This document shows, piece after piece, positions 23,504-61,452 of a DNA stretch of 64,000 nt. The position numbers were made by a program, and so were the translations under genes. Below the pieces are notes generated by a model. It had not been told where the DNA came from. It was given only the letters and a program-made list of their open reading frames with translations, and made no database searches. Every line of letters starts with the position of its first letter. Within the stretch, counting starts at the first letter, position 1. The stretch lies in contig CALVVO010000001.1 in NCBI GenBank assembly GCA_944363885.1, positions 4,865 through 68,864 of the forward strand. Direction: 5' to 3'. The stretch comes from an uncultured Bacilli bacterium. Lineage in GTDB: Bacteria; Bacillota_I; Bacilli_A; RF39; UBA660.

Positions 23504-25423
23504 TTAACTATTTTTTAATTTCATAGAAAATTCATCATCATTAATTGGAATTTTTATAATATTTGATAAAGTAGACTCAACGTCATTTACATCAATTTCT
23601 AATAAATTTGCAATAGTTTCATTGGATAGTTTCTTGCCATTTAAAATCATACTTTTTAATAAAATAACCATTGTTTCAACTGTTGAAATAGATAGATTAT
23701 TTGCTAAAGAATCAATATAAGAAGCATTTATTAATTTTTTTATTTTTTTATAATCTTCAAGTGACAAAGTTAAATTTGGTTCACCTTCATAATAATTATT
23801 TTCAGGTTTTTCTTTGTTAGACTCATCAAGTTTTCGCTTGTTTTGTAATTTTTTTTTCATTTTAGGAATTAAAGAAAGATAGAAAATAGAGTGATTTTCT
23901 TTAGACCAAGATGGATCAGTACTAGGGTGTTCTAAATCATCGCCGTAACGCAATCTGATTAATTCCTTTTCATCGTCGTTAAGTTGAAAAAGCATATTAT
24001 CAATTTCTTCTTTTGAAAAATCACTAAAATATTCATATATACTTTTTAACTTTCTACCCTTATGAACAGGTTTAGCCGCATTTTTTAGTAATCTTTTCAT
24101 TTTAGGAATTAAAGAACGATAAAAAACAGAGTAATTTTTTCTAGACCAAGATGAGTCAGTAACAGGATGTTCTAAATCATTGCCATAATGCATTCTTACT
24201 AATTCTTTCTCATCTTCATTAAGTTGTGACAACATATTATCTATTTCTTCTTTTGAAAAATCACTAAAATATTCATAAATAGTTTTCAATTTTCTATTTT
24301 TATAAATAGGTTTAGTCATATTTTTTAGTAATCTTTTCATTTTAGGAACTAATATACCATAAAATGAATAAGCGTTTTCTTTAGACCAAGATGGATCAGT
24401 AACAAGATGTTCTAAATCATCACCGTAGCGCATTCTTACTAATTCTTTCTCATCTTCATTAAGTTGTGACAACATATTATCTATTTCATCTTTCGAAAAA
24501 TCACTAAAAAGTTCATAAATAGTTTTTAATTTTCTATTTTTATAAATAGGTTTAGTCGTATTTTTTAGTAATCTTTTCATTTTTGGAACTAAGAAACGAT
24601 AAAAGATATAGCTATTTTCTCTAGTCCAAGATGGATCAGTAACAGGATGTTCTAAATCATCGCCGTAGCGCATTCTTACTAATTCTTTCTCATTTTCATT
24701 AAGTTGTGATAACATATTGTCTATTTCTTCTTTTGAAAAATCACTAAAATATTCATAAATAGGTTTTAACCTTCTTTTATTTTGAAACTCATTATTTTCT
24801 AATTGTAATTTTATTGTTTTTAAAGTTGCTGTTATAATTCTAGAAACATACGATTGAGATATTTTCATTTGAGAACTAATTTCATTTTGATTAAGTGGTT
24901 CACAATTAAAACCAAAATACAGCATAATAATTTGCTTTTCACGTTCGGGCAAATTTTCAATTACTCTTCTCACTTCGTCATATAATTCTTTTTCTTCAAT
25001 AGAAAAAACAAAATCTTCATCAGAATCCATTAATATATCCTTTAAAAACAATTCACTACCATCTTTATTTGTAGAAATAGGAGAAGTTAAACTAACATGT
25101 TCTTTATGTGTTTTATTTTTTCGTATGAACAATAAAATCTCATTATCTATACATTTCATAGCATAGGTAGAAAACTTAACTTCTCTATTTATATCAAAAG
25201 TATCCACTGCTTTTATTAAACCCATTAATCCAATTGAAACCAACTCGTCCATATCGTATGGATAAGAAGAAAATTTACCAGGAACTCTATATAATACTAA
25301 TTTAATATTATGGTTTATAATAATTTCTCTAGATTTTAAATCGCCATTTTGAAATCTAATAAAATATTCTACAATCTCTTTATCATCAAGTGGCTTTGGC
25401 AAATTATTTTCAACAAACAACAT
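23504..25423 (-). CDS. Sporulation-type (SigE/SigK-clade) sigma-70 factor fused to four tandem region-4-like repeats and a C-terminal helical domain
   Basis: 639 aa. Residues 1 to approximately 212 form a complete sigma (LPKPLDDKEIVEYFIRFQNGD, NIKLVLYRV, STYAMKCIDNEILLFIRKNK, LPEREKQIIMLYFGF...ISQSYVSRI) with no pro-sequence. Residues approximately 213-535 are four 79-81 aa repeats (IYEYFSDFSKEEIDNMLSQLNEDEKELVRMRYGDDLEHPVTDPSW...IPKMKRLLKN), each resembling region 4.1 plus a degenerate helix. The final approximately 100 aa form another helical module. Confidence 0.65.
   Translation of the reverse strand: MLFVENNLPKPLDDKEIVEYFIRFQNGDLKSREIIINHNIKLVLYRVPGKFSSYPYDMDELVSIGLMGLIKAVDTFDINREVKFSTYAMKCIDNEILLFIRKNKTHKEHVSLTSPISTNKDGSELFLKDILMDSDEDFVFSIEEKELYDEVRRVIENLPEREKQIIMLYFGFNCEPLNQNEISSQMKISQSYVSRIITATLKTIKLQLENNEFQNKRRLKPIYEYFSDFSKEEIDNMLSQLNENEKELVRMRYGDDLEHPVTDPSWTRENSYIFYRFLVPKMKRLLKNTTKPIYKNRKLKTIYELFSDFSKDEIDNMLSQLNEDEKELVRMRYGDDLEHLVTDPSWSKENAYSFYGILVPKMKRLLKNMTKPIYKNRKLKTIYEYFSDFSKEEIDNMLSQLNEDEKELVRMHYGNDLEHPVTDSSWSRKNYSVFYRSLIPKMKRLLKNAAKPVHKGRKLKSIYEYFSDFSKEEIDNMLFQLNDDEKELIRLRYGDDLEHPSTDPSWSKENHSIFYLSLIPKMKKKLQNKRKLDESNKEKPENNYYEGEPNLTLSLEDYKKIKKLINASYIDSLANNLSISTVETMVILLKSMILNGKKLSNETIANLLEIDVNDVESTLSNIIKIPINDDEFSMKLKNS
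23822..24787. repeat. Four diverged tandem DNA repeats of about 240 bp (coding, inside the sigma-fusion gene)
   Basis: Recurring blocks, for example ...TCATCTTCATTAAGTTGTGACAACATATTATCTATTTCTTCTTTTGAAAAATCACTAAAATATTCATAAATAG..., with a period of about 237-241 bp. Copies are roughly 85-90% identical and in frame. Confidence 0.8.
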
Positions 25424-45442: not shown

Positions 45443-45690
45443 ACGTACTCCAAATCATAAAAAAGCCCAAAGATACGACTGCCGTTTAAATAAATCTCGC
45501 CGTAGACGAGGTGGTAAGCAACATAATGCCATTAGGATTCTTAGTAAACTAAGCATTCAACACAGCACATTAATTATGCTCCCAAGAAAATTAAATAGTC
45601 GGTTTATTTGTTACGACAATCATTATCTTCAGGTAATTTTATTATATCATATATTTATAAAAAATATACTTAAAGCGTAAAATCTTTACA

Positions 45691-46467
45691 TTATTCTTTT
45701 TTACTATAATAACTAATAATAGTATTTAAATTAACATTCTTAGTACTATTCATAATATTAACGTCTGCGCCTTTATATAACTCATTTAATTCTGTTATTA
45801 GCTTTTTCATTTCATTCCTTTTGCCCATATTCTTTTCAGTTACCTTACATGCGCAATCGAGGAAAGTTAAATTATTATAGTTTACCCAAGATATAATATC
45901 TTTTTCTCTAACGTAATAAAGAGGTCTAATAAGTTTAATAGGCTTAAAATTAACTGACGATAAAATTGGCATCATAGTTTTAAATTCACCATTATAAATC
46001 ATAGACATAAGTACTGTTTCAATAACATCATCAAAATGGTGCCCTAGAGCAATCTTATTACAACCTAATTTCATAGCTTCACTATATAAAGCCCCTCTTC
46101 TCTTTCTTGCACATAAATAACATATATCTTTTTCCCCATTTATTTGGTCAAAAATATTGCTATTAAATATATGTAACTTTAAATTAAGTTTAGTTGCATT
46201 TTGATGTATTAAATCCAAATGTTTTGTTCTATATCCAGGATTCATCAAAATATAGCAAAGATCAAAATTAATTTTACCATGTTTTTGTAACTCTTCCATA
46301 CATTTTGCTAGCAAAAAAGAATCCTTACCACCACTAATACAGACAGCAATTTTATCCCCATCTTCTATCAAATTAAATTCTTGAACAGCCTTAACAAAAT
46401 TACGCCATATTTCCTTTCTATATTTTTTTATAATACTATTTTCTACCTTCTGCTTCACTTCTTTCAT
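45691..46467 (-). CDS. ttcA: tRNA 2-thiocytidine biosynthesis protein TtcA-family PP-loop ATPase
   Basis: 258 aa, colinear with TtcA (IAVCISGGKDSFLLAKC, CYLCARKRRGALY, KIALGHHFDDVIETVLMSMIYNGEFKTMMP, DCAC). Confidence 0.8.
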   Translation of the reverse strand: MKEVKQKVENSIIKKYRKEIWRNFVKAVQEFNLIEDGDKIAVCISGGKDSFLLAKCMEELQKHGKINFDLCYILMNPGYRTKHLDLIHQNATKLNLKLHIFNSNIFDQINGEKDICYLCARKRRGALYSEAMKLGCNKIALGHHFDDVIETVLMSMIYNGEFKTMMPILSSVNFKPIKLIRPLYYVREKDIISWVNYNNLTFLDCACKVTEKNMGKRNEMKKLITELNELYKGADVNIMNSTKNVNLNTIISYYSKKE

Positions 46468-47950
46468 TTTTTTCCCTTTTTCTCAACTCAAGTTTTATTC
46501 CATCTTCATCCTTTTCAGACAATCTTAAAGATTCTATACTTTCAGAATTATCAAAAATCTCATAAAGAATATCTTCAAACAATTGGTCAACTACAACATT
46601 AAGCGCTCTTGCCCCAGTTTTATACTTCAAAGCATAAATAGCTAATTTATCATAAAGATCATCACTTGTTTCAAAATCAATTCCTAACTTTTCAAGTTCA
46701 GCCTTATACCTATTTAATGGGCTCAAAGTAGACATTTTTAAAATTTTAATAAAATCTTCCTTTTTAAGTTCATTCATTTGAACAATAGTTCTAAATCTTC
46801 CCATGAATTCTAAAGGCATTCCAAATTTTTGAAAGTCTTCAATAGTAATTTCAGGATTAGTATCAACAGTATGAGTTTCACCTGAAAATCCAATAGGTTT
46901 ACTTTTTGATAATTTACCTTCCCTTAGTTCAGTAAATGCACCACATGCAACTATAGTAAGTTTAGAAGTATCAAACTGAATTGTACCTCCAGCATACTGT
47001 AAAGGAAAAACTCCGCCCTCAATAATTGCAAGTAAATTTTTCAAAACATCACTTTTACTAACTGCACTATCACCATTAGTGCCAGCTTTCTTGTCAATTT
47101 CATCCAAAACTAAAATACTTTTTTCAGCGAGTTCTTGATTCATATTAGCATTTTCAAGTAAATTATATAAAATATCTTCTACATCTCCGCCTTTATAGCC
47201 TGATTCAGTATATTTTGTCATGTCTTCAATCCACAAAGGGACCCCAACTCTTTTACTAAGTGACCTAAGTATTTGAGTTTTACCTACGCCAGTAGGTCCA
47301 TAAATTAAAATATTACTTTTCATCTCTTTGCCATCAAACATTAAGTTTTTATATACAGCCGTAATAATCTTTTTTATAGGCTCATCTTGTGAAATAACCT
47401 CAGTTTTAACATCTTCATATAATTGACTAATTTTAGCCAATTTATTTTCACTTTCACACACTATTTCACCTTTACTAGAATGATTATCTAACAAAATATT
47501 TAATTGCTGTTGTATTACATCTAATATCTCTCTTGATTCAAGAATTGTTTCAACTTGCTTTTTTATACTATAAAAATTATTACCAAGTTCAGACGGAGCT
47601 AAATCATTAACATCATAATTATCTATAACAAAAACTTTCTCTTCAAAATCAAATCTAGCAACAAATGCTTCTTTTCTACACTTTAATAAAAAATTTTGAA
47701 AAACCCCATTAAAACCAAAACGCTTAAAAATCGATGAAAAGCTCAAAACATGACTAAAAGCAGTATCAAAGTTTAAATACAAACTATCACTAATGCTAGG
47801 CACTAAATAATGAGATAAATAATCATAGAAAAGATTATTTTCACTATTGTATTCCCCTAAGCAAACACGAACCGGAACAAAATAAATTCCATCTTCTTTA
47901 ACAATTTTTTTATTTAATACTGCACAACTACATTTAAACATAAAAATCAC
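46436..47950 (-). CDS. HslU/ClpX-like AAA+ ATPase with a novel approximately 180-aa N-terminal domain
   Basis: 504 aa. The AAA core (ILIYGPTGVGKTQILRSLSK...TKYTESGYKGGDVEDIL...ILVLDEIDKK) is most like HslU or ClpX. The N-terminus has Cys residues (CSCAV...VRVC) but is not a ClpX C4 zinc finger. No adjacent hslV or clpP. Confidence 0.6.
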   Translation of the reverse strand: MIFMFKCSCAVLNKKIVKEDGIYFVPVRVCLGEYNSENNLFYDYLSHYLVPSISDSLYLNFDTAFSHVLSFSSIFKRFGFNGVFQNFLLKCRKEAFVARFDFEEKVFVIDNYDVNDLAPSELGNNFYSIKKQVETILESREILDVIQQQLNILLDNHSSKGEIVCESENKLAKISQLYEDVKTEVISQDEPIKKIITAVYKNLMFDGKEMKSNILIYGPTGVGKTQILRSLSKRVGVPLWIEDMTKYTESGYKGGDVEDILYNLLENANMNQELAEKSILVLDEIDKKAGTNGDSAVSKSDVLKNLLAIIEGGVFPLQYAGGTIQFDTSKLTIVACGAFTELREGKLSKSKPIGFSGETHTVDTNPEITIEDFQKFGMPLEFMGRFRTIVQMNELKKEDFIKILKMSTLSPLNRYKAELEKLGIDFETSDDLYDKLAIYALKYKTGARALNVVVDQLFEDILYEIFDNSESIESLRLSEKDEDGIKLELRKREKNERSEAEGRK

Positions 47951-49660
47951 CTAAAATTTGATACCTAATTCCTTTAATTGCTTATCATTTGCTTTACTTG
48001 GAGCATTAGTCATCAAACAAGAAGCACTTTGTGTTTTAGGAAACGCAACAACATCTTTAATATTATCAGTACCACAAAGAATCATTGTAATTCTATCAAG
48101 TCCTGGAGCAATACCACCATGAGGAGGAGCACCATACTTAAACGCTTCTAACAAATAACCAAATTTTCTTTGAGCTTCTTCTTCGCTTATACCTAATTTT
48201 TCAAAAACTTTACTTTGAATTTTTTTATCATGAATTCTTATACTTCCACTTGCTAATTCATAACCATTTAAAACAATATCATAACTTCTAGCATAACAAT
48301 TTTCTGGGTCATCTAAAGCATTAACATCTTTAGGCATTGTAAATGGATGATGTGCAGACACGTATCTATTCTCTTCTTCATTCCATTCAAACATAGGAAA
48401 ATCAGTAATCCATAGAAAATTAAATTTATCTTTAGGAATAATATCTAAATATCTTGCCACATTTATTCTTAATGCACCTAAAGCCTGTAAAACCCTATTC
48501 TTATCACCAGCAATAATAAACACAATATCGCCACTCTCTAATCCAAGATAATTCTTAATACTATCTTTTTCATTATCAGACAAAGAATTTGCAATATTAC
48601 CCGTAAATTCATTATTATATTTAACGAAGAACAAATTATCGATTTTATAATTTTTTAAGTCAACAGCTAACTCATCAACTTTTTTTCTAGAAAACATTGC
48701 ATCACTTTTTTTTGTAACAATCGCACCTATAAAATCTTTTTGTAACAAAGATAACTTATTTTCACTTAAAATATCAGTTATATCACTAATAAGCATATCA
48801 AACCTAGTATCAGGTTTATCAGTACCATAATTATTAATAGCATCAGTATATGTCATTCTCTTAAAAGGAATTTCTAAATCAATATCTTTAACATTTTTCA
48901 TTATCTCTTTAAACATTCCTTCAACTACTTCAAAGATATCTTCTTCATTTACAAAAGACATTTCAATATCTATTTGAGTAAACTCAGGTTGTCTATCAGC
49001 TCTTAAATCTTCATCTCTAAAACATCTTGCAATTTGATAATATTTTTCAAAACCAGCAACCATCAATAATTGTTTGAATAACTGAGGAGATTGTGGCAAA
49101 GCATAGAACGTTCCTTTTTGTATTCTAGAGGGAACCAAATAGTCTCTAGCACCTTCAGGGCTAGTAGCAGTTAATATAGGTGTTTCAACTTCAACAAAAC
49201 CTAAATTATCTAAATATTTTCTTACACTTTGAGTTATTTTATGTCTTGTCATTAAATAACTTTGTAACTCTTCTTTTCTTAAATCTAAATATCTATGTTT
49301 TAATCTTAATTCTTCACTAACATTATCACTTTTAATATCAAAAGGCAAAGGCATAGATGTATTTAAAATTTCAAGATTAGTAACATCTATTTCAATTTCA
49401 CCAGTAGGAATTTCAGTATTAGGGTTACTTCTTTTAACAATAGTTCCATTTACTTTTAAAACATATTCATTTTTTATTTCTAAAGCCTTTTCGTAATTAA
49501 TGTTATCACTATTTACAACTAATTGTATAATTCCTGATCTATCTCTTAAATCAATAAAAATCAAATTACCAAGTTTTCTTATCTTACTCGCCCAGCCATA
49601 AAGTTCAACCGTTTCACCAACATTTTTAATATTCAGCTGAGCATTACTTATTTTTTTCAT
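47951..49660 (-). CDS. aspS: Aspartate--tRNA ligase
   Basis: 569 aa with an N-terminal OB fold, class II motifs (FRDEDLRADRQPEFTQID, GGIAPGLDR) and the bacterial insertion domain. It lies immediately downstream of hisS, as in B. subtilis. Confidence 0.95.
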   Translation of the reverse strand: MKKISNAQLNIKNVGETVELYGWASKIRKLGNLIFIDLRDRSGIIQLVVNSDNINYEKALEIKNEYVLKVNGTIVKRSNPNTEIPTGEIEIDVTNLEILNTSMPLPFDIKSDNVSEELRLKHRYLDLRKEELQSYLMTRHKITQSVRKYLDNLGFVEVETPILTATSPEGARDYLVPSRIQKGTFYALPQSPQLFKQLLMVAGFEKYYQIARCFRDEDLRADRQPEFTQIDIEMSFVNEEDIFEVVEGMFKEIMKNVKDIDLEIPFKRMTYTDAINNYGTDKPDTRFDMLISDITDILSENKLSLLQKDFIGAIVTKKSDAMFSRKKVDELAVDLKNYKIDNLFFVKYNNEFTGNIANSLSDNEKDSIKNYLGLESGDIVFIIAGDKNRVLQALGALRINVARYLDIIPKDKFNFLWITDFPMFEWNEEENRYVSAHHPFTMPKDVNALDDPENCYARSYDIVLNGYELASGSIRIHDKKIQSKVFEKLGISEEEAQRKFGYLLEAFKYGAPPHGGIAPGLDRITMILCGTDNIKDVVAFPKTQSASCLMTNAPSKANDKQLKELGIKF

Positions 49661-49669
49661 ACTTCCTCC

Positions 49670-50923
49670 TTAATAATAAGTATTAAAATAATCAATTATT
49701 TCATCATTTTTAACACTAACTTGTTCTTTAGTCTTATTATCTTTAATTGTGACATACCCACCAAGCATCTCATCTTCTCCAATTATAACGACAAAACTAG
49801 GATTTAATTCGTCAACTATTTTCCATTGTTGTTTCATATTTTTGTTTTCATAACATATTTCAGATACGTACCCATTGCTTCTCAAATCATTATTTAATTT
49901 ATAAGGAAACGCATCATTCGTTAAATTCATCACATAAATATCTATATCATTTTCTATTTTAAATTCTTCATCACTTACTAATGCAGTAATTATTCTCTCA
50001 ATTCCGATAGCAAAACCAACAGCAGTAGTATCTGGTCCATCTAACATACGAACTAAATTATCATATCTTCCGCCACCGCATATAGTACTAGCTAAACCTA
50101 ATCTTTCATCAGAAGATACTATTTCAAAAACAGTATGAGTATAATAATCTAGGCCTCTCACTAATGTAGTATCAACTTCATAATCAATTCCTAACTCATT
50201 CAAACTATCTTTAACACTATTAAAATAGTTTATACTGTCTTCATTTAAAAAATCAATTGTCTTTGGTGCATTTTTAATGTAATCCCGGCTCCCATCATAT
50301 TTACAATCTAAAATGCGTAGAGGATTTCTATCAAATCTATCTTTACACAAATCACATAAATTATCATAATCTTTGCTAATATATTCCTTTAAAATATCTT
50401 TATATTTATTTCTACTTTCATTATCACCTAAAGTATTAATCTTAACCTTTAAATCTTTAATACCAATACCTTCTAAATACTTATAAGCCATATAAATTAT
50501 ATCCGCATCTAAGCGAGCACTTTTAGCTCCAATAACTTCAATACCAAACTGAGTAAATTCTCTAAGTCTTCCGTTTTGTGGTCTTTCATATCTAAAGCAA
50601 GAACCAAAATAATAATATTTTTTAAGTCTATTATAAGAGTACTCTTTATTTTCAATATAACTTCTAACAATACCAGCAGTAAATTCAGGTCTAAGAGTCA
50701 TTTCTCTTCCGCCTTTATCTATAAAATCATAAGTTTCTTTATTTACAATATCAGTACTTTCTCCCACACCTCTTTTATACAAATTACTTGATTCAAAAGT
50801 AGGAACTTTTATATACTCAAAATTATTAAGTTTCATAAAATCATGAGTGTACATCTCAATGTTATTAAAAATCTTCCCCTTTTCACCAAATAAATCAATA
50901 GTTCCCTTAGGCTTTTGTAACAT
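49670..50923 (-). CDS. hisS: Histidine--tRNA ligase
   Basis: 417 aa from MLQKPKGTIDL, preceded by RBS AGGAG 8 nt upstream. The longer ORF-track start at 50989 was rejected. Class II motifs and a C-terminal anticodon-binding domain. Confidence 0.9.
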   Translation of the reverse strand: MLQKPKGTIDLFGEKGKIFNNIEMYTHDFMKLNNFEYIKVPTFESSNLYKRGVGESTDIVNKETYDFIDKGGREMTLRPEFTAGIVRSYIENKEYSYNRLKKYYYFGSCFRYERPQNGRLREFTQFGIEVIGAKSARLDADIIYMAYKYLEGIGIKDLKVKINTLGDNESRNKYKDILKEYISKDYDNLCDLCKDRFDRNPLRILDCKYDGSRDYIKNAPKTIDFLNEDSINYFNSVKDSLNELGIDYEVDTTLVRGLDYYTHTVFEIVSSDERLGLASTICGGGRYDNLVRMLDGPDTTAVGFAIGIERIITALVSDEEFKIENDIDIYVMNLTNDAFPYKLNNDLRSNGYVSEICYENKNMKQQWKIVDELNPSFVVIIGEDEMLGGYVTIKDNKTKEQVSVKNDEIIDYFNTYY

Positions 50924-51007
50924 AAAAATCACTCCTAAATTTCTTTTATTATAACACTCATCAAAATATAAGTAAATTTTTTTATACAATTTTTCATATA
51001 TTTAAAT

Positions 51008-53412: not shown

Positions 53413-55784
<2,372 letters not shown>

Positions 55785-55785
55785 A

Positions 55786-57366
55786 TCATTCCTCCATATC
55801 ATTTTTAATTTCTTGGACTATTTTATCACTTGGTACAATTATATCTGCGGTTTTATTATTAAATCCTATAATTACAAATCCATTTCTATTTAATTCATCA
55901 AATACTTTATCACTTTTTATTTTATCTATAGCAGTATCATATATTTTGTTTAATGTTACAAAAGATTTATAATCAAATTCTATTTGATTTCTATCATAAT
56001 ATAGAGCATTTAAAATTTTTTTAATTAACTCAACCAATTCAATAGAATTCAAACTAGTTTTAACATTCCTAACTTCAACTAATTTTTTATCTAAATAGTT
56101 AACCCAAAGATATTTACTACTTATTGTTCTTTGATATTTACAATACTCTTCAAAATCCCAAATAAATTTGTACTGCTTGTAAATATTTTCTTCAAAATAA
56201 TTTTCTTTTTCACTTAATAAAGCCATTAACTTTTTATGAGATTCAATTGGATTTGTAACATCATATTGATTAAAATTCATATGGATGCCGCAATTTTTTT
56301 CAGAAGATACTTGTATTATTCCTTTTGAAAAAATCATTATTTCTTGTAAATTATTCCAAAATTCATAAATTTCTTCTACTTTTAAAGGATCCAAAACTAT
56401 CTCAAATGAATAGTCTCCTATAATTGTACCATCTTTAACAAAATATCCATTTTCACCAACTAATTCTTTTATATTTGCAAGTAATTTTTTTGTAAAAGAA
56501 TATTTATCTCTTTCAAGAGTAACGGAAACCTCTATTTCTAGACCAACTTCGTCATAAGCAATTTTTTCTTTTAATTTTCTTTCATAACCAAATGCAGGTT
56601 TTATATCCAATACCTTATCAAATTTTGCTTCATAATCAAATTTATTTTTTCTAGTATTTCTAACAACTGCTTTTTTCCCCTTTTTATCCTTAAAAATAAC
56701 AGAAGAAAACTTAGATTTATTTTCTAAATAATTAATAACTCCAAGTATGGCATTTATTAGGTTAGAAACCTGCGCTTTATTCTTATGAAAATTTCTATTT
56801 TTCTGACCTATCTCTAATTGAATTGATTTTACACCAGTATCTTTATGTATTCTAGAACATATAGTCCTATTATGCGATCTATAAATTTTATCAATCGTAA
56901 CAGTCCCTAAAGAATATTTATTTAACTCTTTTACAATATCTTTTACAAGTTTTTTATCATTATTAACATTTTTAAATTCATTTACTCCAATATCTAAATC
57001 AGTAATTTCATTTATAGCTAAAGAATGAATATCAATAACATAATCAATATTATTACTTCTCACATATTTTTTTAAATATTCATAATAAAAATTATTCTCT
57101 TTATCATAGTTTGGGTCATAATCAATCTCTTTATTAATATACATAACATGGCAATTTGATAATTCTGAAATAACCCTAATTAAAGAATATGTCAAATAAT
57201 CTTTGCTTTTATTTTCACCATTTTTTTCGTGAGTAAAAGTATGAGGCGCTGACAACAAAATATTATTTGTTCCTTTTTTACAGTTTATTTCCTCAAATTT
57301 CACTAAATTTTTATCTTTTCTATGACTTTTTAAAAGTTTTCTAAATTCTTTTAGCATTTTCACCAT
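55786..57366 (-). CDS. Uncharacterised 526-aa protein, possible N-terminal amidohydrolase-like domain, partner of the ATP-grasp ligase
   Basis: It overlaps the queA stop by 26 nt and is coupled to the ATP-grasp gene. The N-terminal approximately 210 aa carry ILLSAPHTFTHE...YVIDIHSL...IQLEIGQ. The C-terminal approximately 300 aa have no recognisable motif. Confidence 0.55.
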   Translation of the reverse strand: MVKMLKEFRKLLKSHRKDKNLVKFEEINCKKGTNNILLSAPHTFTHEKNGENKSKDYLTYSLIRVISELSNCHVMYINKEIDYDPNYDKENNFYYEYLKKYVRSNNIDYVIDIHSLAINEITDLDIGVNEFKNVNNDKKLVKDIVKELNKYSLGTVTIDKIYRSHNRTICSRIHKDTGVKSIQLEIGQKNRNFHKNKAQVSNLINAILGVINYLENKSKFSSVIFKDKKGKKAVVRNTRKNKFDYEAKFDKVLDIKPAFGYERKLKEKIAYDEVGLEIEVSVTLERDKYSFTKKLLANIKELVGENGYFVKDGTIIGDYSFEIVLDPLKVEEIYEFWNNLQEIMIFSKGIIQVSSEKNCGIHMNFNQYDVTNPIESHKKLMALLSEKENYFEENIYKQYKFIWDFEEYCKYQRTISSKYLWVNYLDKKLVEVRNVKTSLNSIELVELIKKILNALYYDRNQIEFDYKSFVTLNKIYDTAIDKIKSDKVFDELNRNGFVIIGFNNKTADIIVPSDKIVQEIKNDMEE

Positions 57367-58399
57367 CTCCTATTTTATCTGTAATAAACATCGCATCACC
57401 AAAGCTAAAAAATCTGTAATTATTCTTTACTGCTTCATTATATGCTGACAAAATAATTTCTTTACTAGATAATGCACTAACAAGCATAAGTAATGTACTT
57501 TTTGGCAAATGAAAATTAGTAATTAATGCGTCAACTGCTTTAAATTCATATCCAGGATAAATAAAAATATCAGTTTCTTCCCTAATTGCTTTAAATTTTC
57601 CGTATTTACTAATGTTGCTTTCTAACGTTCTAACACTTGTAGTACCAACACAAACTATTCTTCTCTTTTCACTTTTAGCTTTATTTAACTTAGTAGCAAC
57701 TTCTTCCGTTATTTCATACTCTTCTGAATGCATAACATGTTTAGTAACATCTTCTACATTTACAGGTCTAAATGTGCCAAGTCCAACATGCAATGTGATA
57801 TAAAGTACTTCTATTCCCTTATTTTCAATTTCTTCTAATAATTCATTTGTAAAGTGCAAACCAGCAGTTGGTGCTGCAGCACTACCATTTATTTTAGAAT
57901 AAACTGTATTATATCTATCTTTGTATTTAAGTTTTTCATGAATATAAGGCGGTAATGGCATAGTGCCTATTTTACTTATTATTTCTAAAAATACGCCTTT
58001 ATAATCAAATTTAATATGAGTTATTCCTTCTTCTTTTATATCTATTACTGTCCCAGTTAACTCGTCAGAAAATATTAATTTAGTTCCAATTTTTAATCTT
58101 TTTTGTTTTCGTGCCAAACACTCATAAACATCTTTATCTATCTCTTTTAAAAGCAATATTTCAATCGATGCTTTAGTATCTTCTTTTATAGCATAAATTC
58201 TAGATGGTATAACTCTTGTGTTGTTTAAAACTAAAACGTCTCCTTTATTTAGATAATTAATTATATTAAAAAACTTCTCATGAATAATTTCACCAGTAAT
58301 TTTATCCAAAACTAAAAGCTTTGAAAAACTCCTGTTCTCCAAAGGACTTTGCGCAATTAAATGTTCAGGTAAAAAATAATCAAAATCACTTGTTTTCAT
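57341..58399 (-). CDS. queA: S-adenosylmethionine:tRNA ribosyltransferase-isomerase
   Basis: 352 aa from MKTSDFDYFLPEHLIAQSPLENR with a typical QueA N-terminus. Full-length colinearity with QueA. Confidence 0.9.
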   Translation of the reverse strand: MKTSDFDYFLPEHLIAQSPLENRSFSKLLVLDKITGEIIHEKFFNIINYLNKGDVLVLNNTRVIPSRIYAIKEDTKASIEILLLKEIDKDVYECLARKQKRLKIGTKLIFSDELTGTVIDIKEEGITHIKFDYKGVFLEIISKIGTMPLPPYIHEKLKYKDRYNTVYSKINGSAAAPTAGLHFTNELLEEIENKGIEVLYITLHVGLGTFRPVNVEDVTKHVMHSEEYEITEEVATKLNKAKSEKRRIVCVGTTSVRTLESNISKYGKFKAIREETDIFIYPGYEFKAVDALITNFHLPKSTLLMLVSALSSKEIILSAYNEAVKNNYRFFSFGDAMFITDKIGDGENAKRI

Positions 58400-59532: not shown

Positions 59533-61452
59533 TTATTGTCTAACATATTTATGTTGAACTAGATAGTCAATAATAAATTGCATTTTTTCTTCAGTTGAAG
59601 CACCTGGATTTGTAACTTGATAATATTCTTCATAAGCATCAGCTAATACTCCAGCCAAATCACTAGGTATTGCATAAAATTTCAAATAATAGTCAATATT
59701 TTTAACATTAGTCATAATTGTATCTAATTTACTATCCATACCATTTAATTTAGTAGTAATATTATCAATATTAGTATTTAATGTTCCTAATATATTATTA
59801 TTTTCTTCAACAGTAGTCTTAATTTCAGCAAGTGATGTAGTGAAATCTTGTGTTCTTTGATTTAAAACACTATATCTACCTCTTTCATCAGAAGCTAAAG
59901 TTGCTAAATTTGTACCAAGATCTTTGATATCTTGTCTTATTACATTTTGTCTACCAACGGCATTTGATTCATATGTTGCTAATGAAGATTTTACATCATT
60001 TATTCCATTTATAACGTCATTTGTATTTTTAGATAATGAAGTTATAGAGCTAGAAATATCAGAAAGTGATGATTCTATTCTTGAATTAACTATACTTAAA
60101 TTTCTAAATGAAACATTTACAGTTGATGTTAAATCATTTAATGAACCCTCAATTCTATTTGTTACTATACTCAAATTATTTAATGATGTCCTTGTTTGAT
60201 TAGCATGAGTAGTTAATGTATTTTTAATTCCATTTGTTACTGTACTCAAATTATTTAATGATGTCCTTGTTTGATTAGCATGAGTGGTCAATGTATTTTT
60301 AATTCCATTTGTTACTGTACTCAAATTATTTAATGATGTCTTTGTTTGACTAGCATGAGTAGTTAATGTATCTTTAATTCCATTTGTTACTGTACTCAAA
60401 TTATTTAATGATGTCTTTGTTTGATTAGCATGAGTAGTTAATGTATCTTTAATTCCATTTGTTACTATGCTTAAATTATTTAATGATGTTCTGTTTTCAA
60501 CTATAAATGAATTTAAAGAACTTTGAACATTGTCAATTTTATCACTTAAGAATAATGTATTATTTGCATTATCCTCTAATATTGTCTTTTCTGCATTATC
60601 AATATTATTATTTATTGAATTCATGCTATTAGTAATCATGTTACCTAAATGAGTTCTTGTGTTATTTAAGTCAGTGTGTATTGCATTTTGACTATTAGTA
60701 ATCATATTACCTAAGTCTGTACGCAATGCATTTTCACTATTAGTTATTACATTTGTTAAATGATTTCTTGTGTTACTTAAATCTGTATGTATTGCATTTT
60801 GACTATTTGTAATCATATTACCTAAGTCTGTACGCAATGCATTTTCACTATTAGTTATTACATTTGTTAAATAATCTCTTGTATTACTTAAATCTGTATG
60901 TATTGCATTCTGACTATTGGTAATCATATTACCTAAATGATTTCTTGTATTATCTAAGTCAGTATGTATTGCATTTTGACTATTAGTAATCATATTACCT
61001 AAATGAGTTCTTGTGTTATTTAAGTCAGTATGTATTGCATTCTGACTATTAGATAAAGCAGTTAATAATGCAGATCTTGTATTATTAATATTATTATCCA
61101 AATTAGTATAATTTGTATTTATTAGAACTGTTAAAGCATCTGTTTTTTCAGTAAGACTCTTATCTAATAAATAATATTTTGAACTAATATTAGAATTAAT
61201 ACTTGATTCTGAATCATTAATGTTTTCAATAATTTCATCTTTTGATTCAGTCACAGCTTCATTTAATTCAGTAGTTTGTTTATTATTATTTTCATCTAAG
61301 AATTCAATTTTATCAAGCACATTTGGAATTGAATTACCATTGATATCAAATAATTTTGCAAGAGACAAACCAAGTAAAGTAAATAAAGCAACTAAAATTA
61401 CAACAACTACTACAATTTGTAGTGTTTGATTTTTTTGTTTTTTATTTTTCAT
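59533..61452 (-). CDS. Membrane-anchored Asn/Thr-rich tandem-repeat protein
   Basis: 639 aa with an N-terminal TM anchor (IVVVVVILVALFTLLGLSL). It has about eight 22-aa repeats (ITNSQNAIHTDLxNTRxHLGNM) and then five 25-aa repeats (TSLNNLSTVTNGIKDTLTTHANQTK). The C-terminus is a unique approximately 140-aa domain. Confidence 0.55.
   Translation of the reverse strand: MKNKKQKNQTLQIVVVVVILVALFTLLGLSLAKLFDINGNSIPNVLDKIEFLDENNNKQTTELNEAVTESKDEIIENINDSESSINSNISSKYYLLDKSLTEKTDALTVLINTNYTNLDNNINNTRSALLTALSNSQNAIHTDLNNTRTHLGNMITNSQNAIHTDLDNTRNHLGNMITNSQNAIHTDLSNTRDYLTNVITNSENALRTDLGNMITNSQNAIHTDLSNTRNHLTNVITNSENALRTDLGNMITNSQNAIHTDLNNTRTHLGNMITNSMNSINNNIDNAEKTILEDNANNTLFLSDKIDNVQSSLNSFIVENRTSLNNLSIVTNGIKDTLTTHANQTKTSLNNLSTVTNGIKDTLTTHASQTKTSLNNLSTVTNGIKNTLTTHANQTRTSLNNLSTVTNGIKNTLTTHANQTRTSLNNLSIVTNRIEGSLNDLTSTVNVSFRNLSIVNSRIESSLSDISSSITSLSKNTNDVINGINDVKSSLATYESNAVGRQNVIRQDIKDLGTNLATLASDERGRYSVLNQRTQDFTTSLAEIKTTVEENNNILGTLNTNIDNITTKLNGMDSKLDTIMTNVKNIDYYLKFYAIPSDLAGVLADAYEEYYQVTNPGASTEEKMQFIIDYLVQHKYVRQ
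60100..61080. repeat. Two families of in-frame coding tandem repeats (approximately 66-bp and approximately 75-bp units)
   Basis: The 75-bp units recur near 60171, 60251, 60331 and 60411. The 66-bp units recur across approximately 60550-61080. Confidence 0.7.

Follow-up and report, generated by a model that had tools for sequence, protein, structure and literature searches.

ClpX is among the best-understood AAA+ machines, and its choice of substrates has been attributed to a zinc-binding N-terminal domain, to the RKH loops and to the pore loops. In this protein, an IGF tripeptide inserts into hydrophobic clefts of ClpP and serves as docking element, the RKH loop, reported to be confined to the ClpX family, touches the ssrA degron together with Val154 of the E. 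coli protein, and R307 acts as arginine finger (PMC12383707). Here we describe a ClpX-like AAA+ protein, termed X, whose gene (46436..47941, minus strand, 501 residues) is located in a stretch of 64,000 nucleotides from an uncultured Bacilli bacterium (contig CALVVO010000001.1), which we refer to as the window. The motor of X is of a known kind, its family is uncharacterised and its N-terminal domain (N-domain) is without detectable relatives in Pfam, the PDB and viral structure predictions. We consider it probable that X is a hexameric unfoldase of the ClpX type, which in uncultured gut Bacilli with a low content of guanine and cytosine (GC) acts as an alternative partner of ClpP and carries a new, substrate-selecting N-domain.

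The family of X has apparently kept the element for docking to ClpP, dropped both recognition elements that are specific to ClpX and added a fold without known relatives, and it represents a natural experiment in the re-targeting of a ClpX motor. Its hosts are abundant, uncultured Bacilli of the gut with small genomes, whose proteostasis machinery is essentially unstudied. A previous sequence-only reading of this DNA had described an orphan unfoldase resembling HslU and ClpX with a Cys-containing N-terminal region, and our analysis confirms part of its observations and supports part of its interpretation.

The AAA+ motor and its docking loop

The three AAA+ motifs singled out in the sequence-only reading, GPTGVGKT, TESGYKGGDVEDIL and LDEIDK, are present in X; the assignment of its core to HslU did not hold. 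Among the models of NCBIfam, ClpX ranks first (NF003745, 183.5 bits, E 6e-54, in a single stretch), compared with 99.9 bits (E 1.5e-28) for HslU (TIGR00390, cut-off 362.45), whose match is broken into three stretches. A profile of 33 full-length relatives searched against the PDB finds E. coli ClpX at E 1.1e-81 in one collinear stretch, with profile positions 159-481 aligned to ClpX residues 58-406, and HslU at 4e-49 in three pieces, since the I-domain of the latter has no counterpart in the family of X, where 58 residues separate Walker A from Walker B with no I-domain between them. Judged by its sequence, the motor is ClpX-like and not HslU-like. That X might be an HslU-type ATPase, or one associated with mobile elements or defence, appears extremely improbable: its Walker A is identical to the HslU string, but its identity as HslU is effectively refuted by the lack of an I-domain, the absence of hslV from the window and a score far below the cut-off.

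The motor is complete, comprising Walker A and B, the pore-1 tyrosine, the arginine finger and sensor-2 (here and below, genes and elements with window coordinates are on the minus strand). Its large subdomain (residues 167-391; 46769..47443; Pfam AAA_2/AAA) is collinear with ClpX, without an I-domain insertion. It contains the Walker A motif (residues 215-222; 47276..47299), where G215, G218, K221 and T222 are invariant, the pore-1 loop GYKG (residues 248-251; 47189..47200), the Walker B motif DEIDK (residues 280-284; 47090..47104), all five residues of which are invariant, and the arginine finger R382 in the context EFMGR (46796..46798), which is equivalent to R307 of ClpX. The small subdomain (residues 392-465; 46547..46768; Pfam ClpB_D2-small) holds the sensor-2 motif GAR, with G443, A444 and R445 invariant (R445 at 46607..46609), and is followed, in a full-length model obtained with AlphaFold2 (AF2), by a C-terminal β-hairpin and a charged tail of low confidence (residues 466-501; 46439..46546). 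As the catalytic residues of Walker A and Walker B, R382 and R445 are invariant in family alignments of 33 and 23 members, X should be an active ATPase. The pore-1 tyrosine, a further feature to which the sequence-only reading had drawn attention, is present and conserved; the loop is the counterpart of GYVG in ClpX, with the position of Val154 occupied by Lys in X and with GYKG, GYVG, GYQG and GYYG found among its relatives. A hexamer of this type would hydrolyse ATP and hold its substrates by the pore-1 tyrosines.

Likewise present is a ClpP-docking tripeptide, I350-G351-F352 (46886..46894), which is embedded in the sequence P-I-G-F-S-G (residues 349-354) and aligns with Ile268-Gly269-Phe270 of ClpX. 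Among 56 relatives that carry the N-domain, each of its positions is conserved in 55 (I, V or M at the first, G at the second and F at the third), and the surrounding loop is variable in length, with positions that are conserved in 31 of the 56 at most. In a wider sample of the 117 best homologs, the pattern [ILVM]G[FYL] is kept in 96, altered in five and lost in 16 by deletion of the entire loop. The latter form a separate subfamily of about 455 residues (P0103 type), whose members presumably are ClpP-independent ClpX-like motors. In proteins of this type (for example P0077, P0083, P0085, P0100 and P0113), Walker B reads DEFD and not DEID.

The loss of the tripeptide in some relatives and its near-invariance in the subfamily of X argue for selection and for a ClpP-like docking partner. 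Its retention is the strongest available argument for such a partner, and the X ring would then dock on ClpP via six IGF loops and deliver its substrates. In a different scenario, which we regard as unlikely, X would be a ClpP-independent remodelling chaperone, with a ring that takes apart or unfolds particular proteins but does not degrade them. Such remodelling has precedents in the action of ClpX on MuA and of mitochondrial ClpX on ALAS, and the IGF-less sister subfamily indicates that ClpP-free ClpX-like motors have emerged in the same radiation, yet a near-invariant IGF in an otherwise variable loop is hard to account for without a partner of the ClpP type.

The N-domain and its distribution

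The region preceding the motor, described in the sequence-only reading as an unrecognised domain of about 180 residues, is indeed unrecognised, but it consists of a smaller domain of about 122 residues, a helix of about 30 residues and a disordered linker. The AF2 model defines an N-terminal α/β domain (residues 1-122; 47576..47941) with strands at residues 5-15, 18-32, 37-40, 45-49, 60-67, 91-98 and 103-110 and helices at residues 50-56, 68-75 and 80-88. When residues 1-125 were modelled on their own with an alignment of 29 homologous N-domains, the predicted local distance difference test (pLDDT) score amounted to 92.3 and the predicted template modelling (pTM) score to 0.84, and the N-domain is confidently predicted to be an autonomous fold. 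In the full-length AF2 model, which was based on an alignment of 33 sequences, a long helix (residues 126-154; 47480..47566) joins it to the motor via a disordered linker (residues 155-166; 47444..47479; pLDDT <50 at residues 154-166), whose length and sequence vary among relatives. The canonical zinc-finger domain of ClpX is replaced in X by this unrelated α/β domain of 122 residues, which is connected to the motor through the helix and the flexible linker.

No relatives of this fold were found with Foldseek in the PDB (best E 0.22, TM-scores of 0.29 or lower) or among predicted viral structures (BFVD, best E 0.17), and searches of Pfam returned nothing consistent across 45 homologous N-domains. 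The only conserved residues of the domain are the invariant G29 and F38, which is found in at least 90% of its members. A zinc or other metal site, at which the emphasis on cysteines in the sequence-only reading had hinted, was considered and rejected, as the four columns that contain Cys in X do so in one, five, six and two of the 45 homologs.

A profile of these 45 N-domains, with X as first row (A4), was searched against 1.84 billion representative proteins and recovered 134 clusters at E <= 1e-3, 62 of them at E <= 1e-10. In all clusters but one, the match begins within the first 25 residues, and the N-domain appears to be restricted to the N-termini of ClpX-like ATPases or to short proteins, as expected of a targeting module. 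Four architectures are found: the N-domain combined with a ClpX-like motor in proteins of about 470-515 residues, to which X belongs; longer proteins of about 575-630 residues with an extended helical linker; a single protein with two N-domains in tandem (P0230); and stand-alone forms of about 170-190 residues, in which the N-domain and linker helix are accompanied by a short, conserved tail region. Where homologs carry a source name, they are described as 'AAA family ATPase' or 'AAA domain-containing protein' and their metagenome-assembled genomes are labelled as Bacilli, Tenericutes or Mycoplasmatota; none of these few named homologs stems from a cultured organism.

The short N-only proteins are genuine genes that occupy the same chromosomal slot as X. 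In one lineage (L050), hisS is followed by an N-only gene (183 residues, L050:2955-3506), a gene encoding the N-domain with its motor (487 residues), ttcA and tcdA. In another (L052), an N-only gene (179 residues, L052:2391-2930) directly precedes ttcA and tcdA, with no AAA+ module.

Genomic setting and paralogs

X is encoded by a true open reading frame (ORF) in an AT-rich window (~27% GC), which reads cleanly under genetic code 11. The minus-strand ORF at 46436..47950 proposed in the sequence-only reading is uninterrupted and spans 504 codons when counted from GTG 47950 to the TAG stop (46436..46438), but its start has been moved. GTG 47950 is the earliest in-frame start past the stop codon of aspS, but it falls within the ribosome-binding site AGGTGA. 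This Shine-Dalgarno-like element (47947..47952, read from the sequence) overlaps the aspS stop codon (47951..47953) and is separated by a spacer of 5 nt from ATG 47941, which is likely the best start, because of its distance to AGGTGA and because at least 10 metagenome contigs from the human gut, the longest of 93.9 kb, carry a recorded protein (P0001) that is identical to its 501-residue product.

The gene order was described correctly before, with X placed between hisS-aspS and the tRNA-modification genes. hisS (49670..50923) is followed after a gap of 9 nt by aspS (47951..49660) and, after a second gap of 9 nt, by X, whose last 32 nt (46436..46467) are overlapped by a gene for a TtcA-like PP-loop tRNA thiolase (ttcA, 45691..46467; NCBIfam TtcA, 202.6 bits against a cut-off of 272). 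Past ttcA follow a 6S RNA, a TcdA-like gene, rarA and xerD. The 6S/SsrS RNA (45460..45638) between ttcA and tcdA matches the full-length model with 47.4 bits at a gathering score of 46.4, and a terminator-like hairpin (45510..45496) lies within this match. The gaps of 9 nt and the absence of terminator-like sites on the minus strand between hisS, aspS, X and ttcA suggest that the four genes form one transcription unit, and X would be co-transcribed with its neighbours as part of a housekeeping operon. A promoter scan, with 50 sites compared to 47 expected, was uninformative in such AT-rich DNA.

The arrangement hisS-(aspS)-X-ttcA-(x)-tcdA-rarA recurs in four lineages (L001, L043, L045 and L050), with an identity of 36-54% over the AAA+ part and with the gene corresponding to X either overlapping ttcA or separated from it by 0-3 nt; L052 shares the ttcA-tcdA portion, which makes five further lineages. 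Viral contigs contain homologs of the ClpX core only, none of them with the N-domain. Based on the position conserved in five further lineages and this lack of viral N-domain homologs, X appears to be a chromosomal gene that is stable, inherited vertically and of cellular function, located in an operon for translation and tRNA modification, rather than a mobile element or a defence gene. A mobile or defensive nature could be suspected from weak PADLOC matches to DolB (E 6e-11) and IetA and from one family member located elsewhere (P0050), which is found beside a restriction-modification pair and transposases, without ttcA. However, the PADLOC matches span the P-loop region only, for which reason a role in defence was rejected, and both the syntenic housekeeping locus, with its unremarkable composition, and the distribution in viral contigs argue against it.

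The tight and conserved coupling of X to ttcA may reflect function or mere operon inertia. It would be in line with a remodelling chaperone that acts without ClpP, whose targets might include neighbouring proteins of translation and tRNA modification, such as the iron-sulphur (Fe-S) enzyme TtcA, and the same can be said of the stand-alone N-domain kept beside ttcA in L052, which lacks the motor there. Adjacency within a housekeeping operon is nevertheless weak evidence of function, and P0050 resides in another context. In a more specific proposal, the N-domain is an autonomous module tied to the TtcA-like Fe-S tRNA 2-thiocytidine synthetase, the motor is a dedicated remodeller or quality-control factor of proteins for tRNA thiolation and translation, and the stand-alone N-domains are adaptors in trans. 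This proposal fits the conserved coupling, the N-only gene beside ttcA in L052 and the additional N-only gene that precedes the full-length one in L050; we consider it improbable.

The relationship of X to canonical ClpX is illustrated in a Bacilli contig of 28% GC (L047), where tig-clpP-clpX, the latter with its zf-C4 domain, is intact and located 5 kb from P0067, a more distant paralog of X with 386 residues and no N-domain. The canonical ClpX of this contig retains two CxxC pairs, GYVG, RKH and MGF, and scores 500 bits against its counterpart from E. coli. In contrast, the scores of X amount to 142-150 bits with either of these two proteins and to 187-323 bits within its own radiation. On this basis, X is assigned to a clade of ClpX-like paralogs apart from canonical ClpX and would not be a ClpX ortholog in the sense of annotation. 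The earlier suggestion that the protein could be an unfoldase with a specialised role or a ClpX paralog bearing an adaptor finds support in this distinct clade, in the coexistence of P0067 with canonical clpP-clpX and in the unrecognised N-domain.

These scores also bear on the idea that X is the sole ClpX of its lineage, a housekeeping ortholog that has drifted in a reduced genome and swapped its N-domain. The retained IGF, the lack of a canonical clpX in the window and the fact that fast-evolving proteins are common in small-genome, low-GC lineages would agree with such an origin. However, canonical ClpX is conserved even at 28% GC, as seen in the 500 bits quoted above, canonical ClpXP is found together with the more distant member P0067, and several paralogs reside together in the same genome, which makes this alternative rather implausible. 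Two such paralogs are found in L001, where a longer protein of 611 residues with the same type of N-domain is encoded upstream of hisS (L001:3561-5396), and L049 contains three adjacent AAA-domain genes. A ClpX-like gene is also found upstream of hisS in L004. The genes in L049 (L049:10001-16067) encode proteins of 697, 775 and 465 residues and lie upstream of hisS-aspS; the first, the only one of the three examined in this respect, is a ClpX-like paralog.

Elsewhere in the window, the first 205 residues of a 639-residue ORF (23504..25423) hold sigma-70 regions 2 and 4, and another match resembling region 4 lies at residues 392-419; the product may be a sigma-factor-like protein of unusual length or a fusion. 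Between the queuosine genes queA and tgt, an ORF of 526 residues without Pfam match and an ATP-grasp gene (RimK/GSH-S-like) are inserted (53708..58399). The same order of four genes is found on the identical metagenome contigs L037-L039, and in the related L043, queA and tgt are adjacent without an insert. Another ORF of 639 residues (59533..61452), whose sole match is to apolipoprotein-type helical repeats, weak and below threshold, probably encodes a long coiled-coil protein. About 85 nt separate hisS from a divergent spoVB/murJ-like gene. In many Firmicutes, hisS-aspS is under the control of a T-box; here, a scan of the region upstream of hisS (50924..51007) at Rfam gathering thresholds found no T-box leader.

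Comparison with known Clp systems

Several observations weigh against an assignment of X as alternative ClpP partner of the ClpX type. The protein misses the curated cut-offs for ClpX, with 183.5 compared to 359 bits for NF003745 and 164.4 compared to 370.75 bits for TIGR00382. In the profile alignment, the RKH loop is deleted, with a gap of six residues at the ClpX sequence RKHPQQ, where X contains the segment YAGG. As already noted in the sequence-only reading, the ClpX zinc finger has no equivalent: zf-C4_ClpX (PF06689) matches neither X nor any of the 45 homologous N-domains, which lack a CxxC...CxxC pattern. The N-only gene of L052 has no adjacent AAA+ gene, and the existence of such stand-alone genes implies that the N-domain may function independently of a ClpX-like motor. 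Searches by tblastn with E. coli ClpP, ClpX and HslV as queries detected no clpP, hslV or second clpX in the entire 64-kb window, extending the earlier remark that neither hslV nor clpP is adjacent; the resemblance of X to the ClpX query is confirmed independently by the PDB and NCBIfam searches. Equally, the N-domain-bearing homologs that were examined have no clpP within a distance of 10 kb, a distribution that would favour remodelling without degradation, and among comparable genomes ClpP was seen in L047 only. With respect to the label of an orphan, clpP may simply be encoded elsewhere in the genome. Finally, the literature searched yielded nothing on the family and no experiments on any of its members.

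Despite these points, we favour a partnership with ClpP, in which X would serve beside canonical ClpX, a role comparable to that of ClpC and ClpE in other Firmicutes. As X has neither a zinc-binding domain nor an RKH loop, classical ClpX degrons should not be recognised, and the replacement of the zinc-finger head by a domain without known relatives makes different targets probable. The tethered N-domain, rather than recognition of the RKH/ssrA type, would recruit substrates or adaptors. The literature searched has no description of a protein that combines a retained IGF with the loss of both the RKH loop and the zinc-binding domain. In databases, proteins of this family are labelled only as AAA family ATPases. 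Defining the N-domain would create a new domain family, and it might also uncover new adaptors or degrons or connect the family with tRNA modification.

Among described proteins, ClpX (NF003745/TIGR00382; PDB 8e91, 6wr2, 3hws) is closest to X. Both are built on one AAA+ module, and the two align collinearly along ClpX residues 58-406; they share Walker A and B, the pore-1 Tyr, the arginine finger, sensor-2, a tripeptide of the IGF type and a lid of the ClpB_D2-small type. Unlike ClpX, X has a 122-residue α/β domain with a helix in place of the C4 zinc-binding N-domain, a deleted RKH loop and GYKG in its pore, it shares about 33% identity and reaches half of the curated hidden Markov model cut-off score, and it resides in the context hisS-aspS-X-ttcA instead of tig-clpP-clpX. 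Mitochondrial CLPX and yeast Mcx1 (PDB 9ykx, 9dvy) resemble X as motors of the ClpX family with divergent N-terminal regions, matched by the family profile at E 1e-66 to 1e-67, and their group includes ClpP-independent chaperones. In contrast to X they are eukaryotic and organellar, with unrelated N-terminal regions and a PDB match in two stretches. HslU belongs to the same Clp/Hsp100-type AAA+ clade and has very similar Walker A and pore-loop strings, but it differs from X in the I-domain of about 130 residues in its large subdomain, the lack of an IGF loop and its partner HslV. In ClpC and ClpE of Firmicutes, one ClpP is shared by several unfoldases, which dock by tripeptide loops and whose N-domains set the repertoire of substrates and adaptors, as proposed here for X. 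These proteins are, however, two-ring Hsp100 unfoldases (D1 and D2) that match weakly (E ~1e-22), and X is of the single-ring ClpX type. On present evidence, X is not a categorically new system compared with these proteins, and it merits the attention of specialists and an entry as a domain family.

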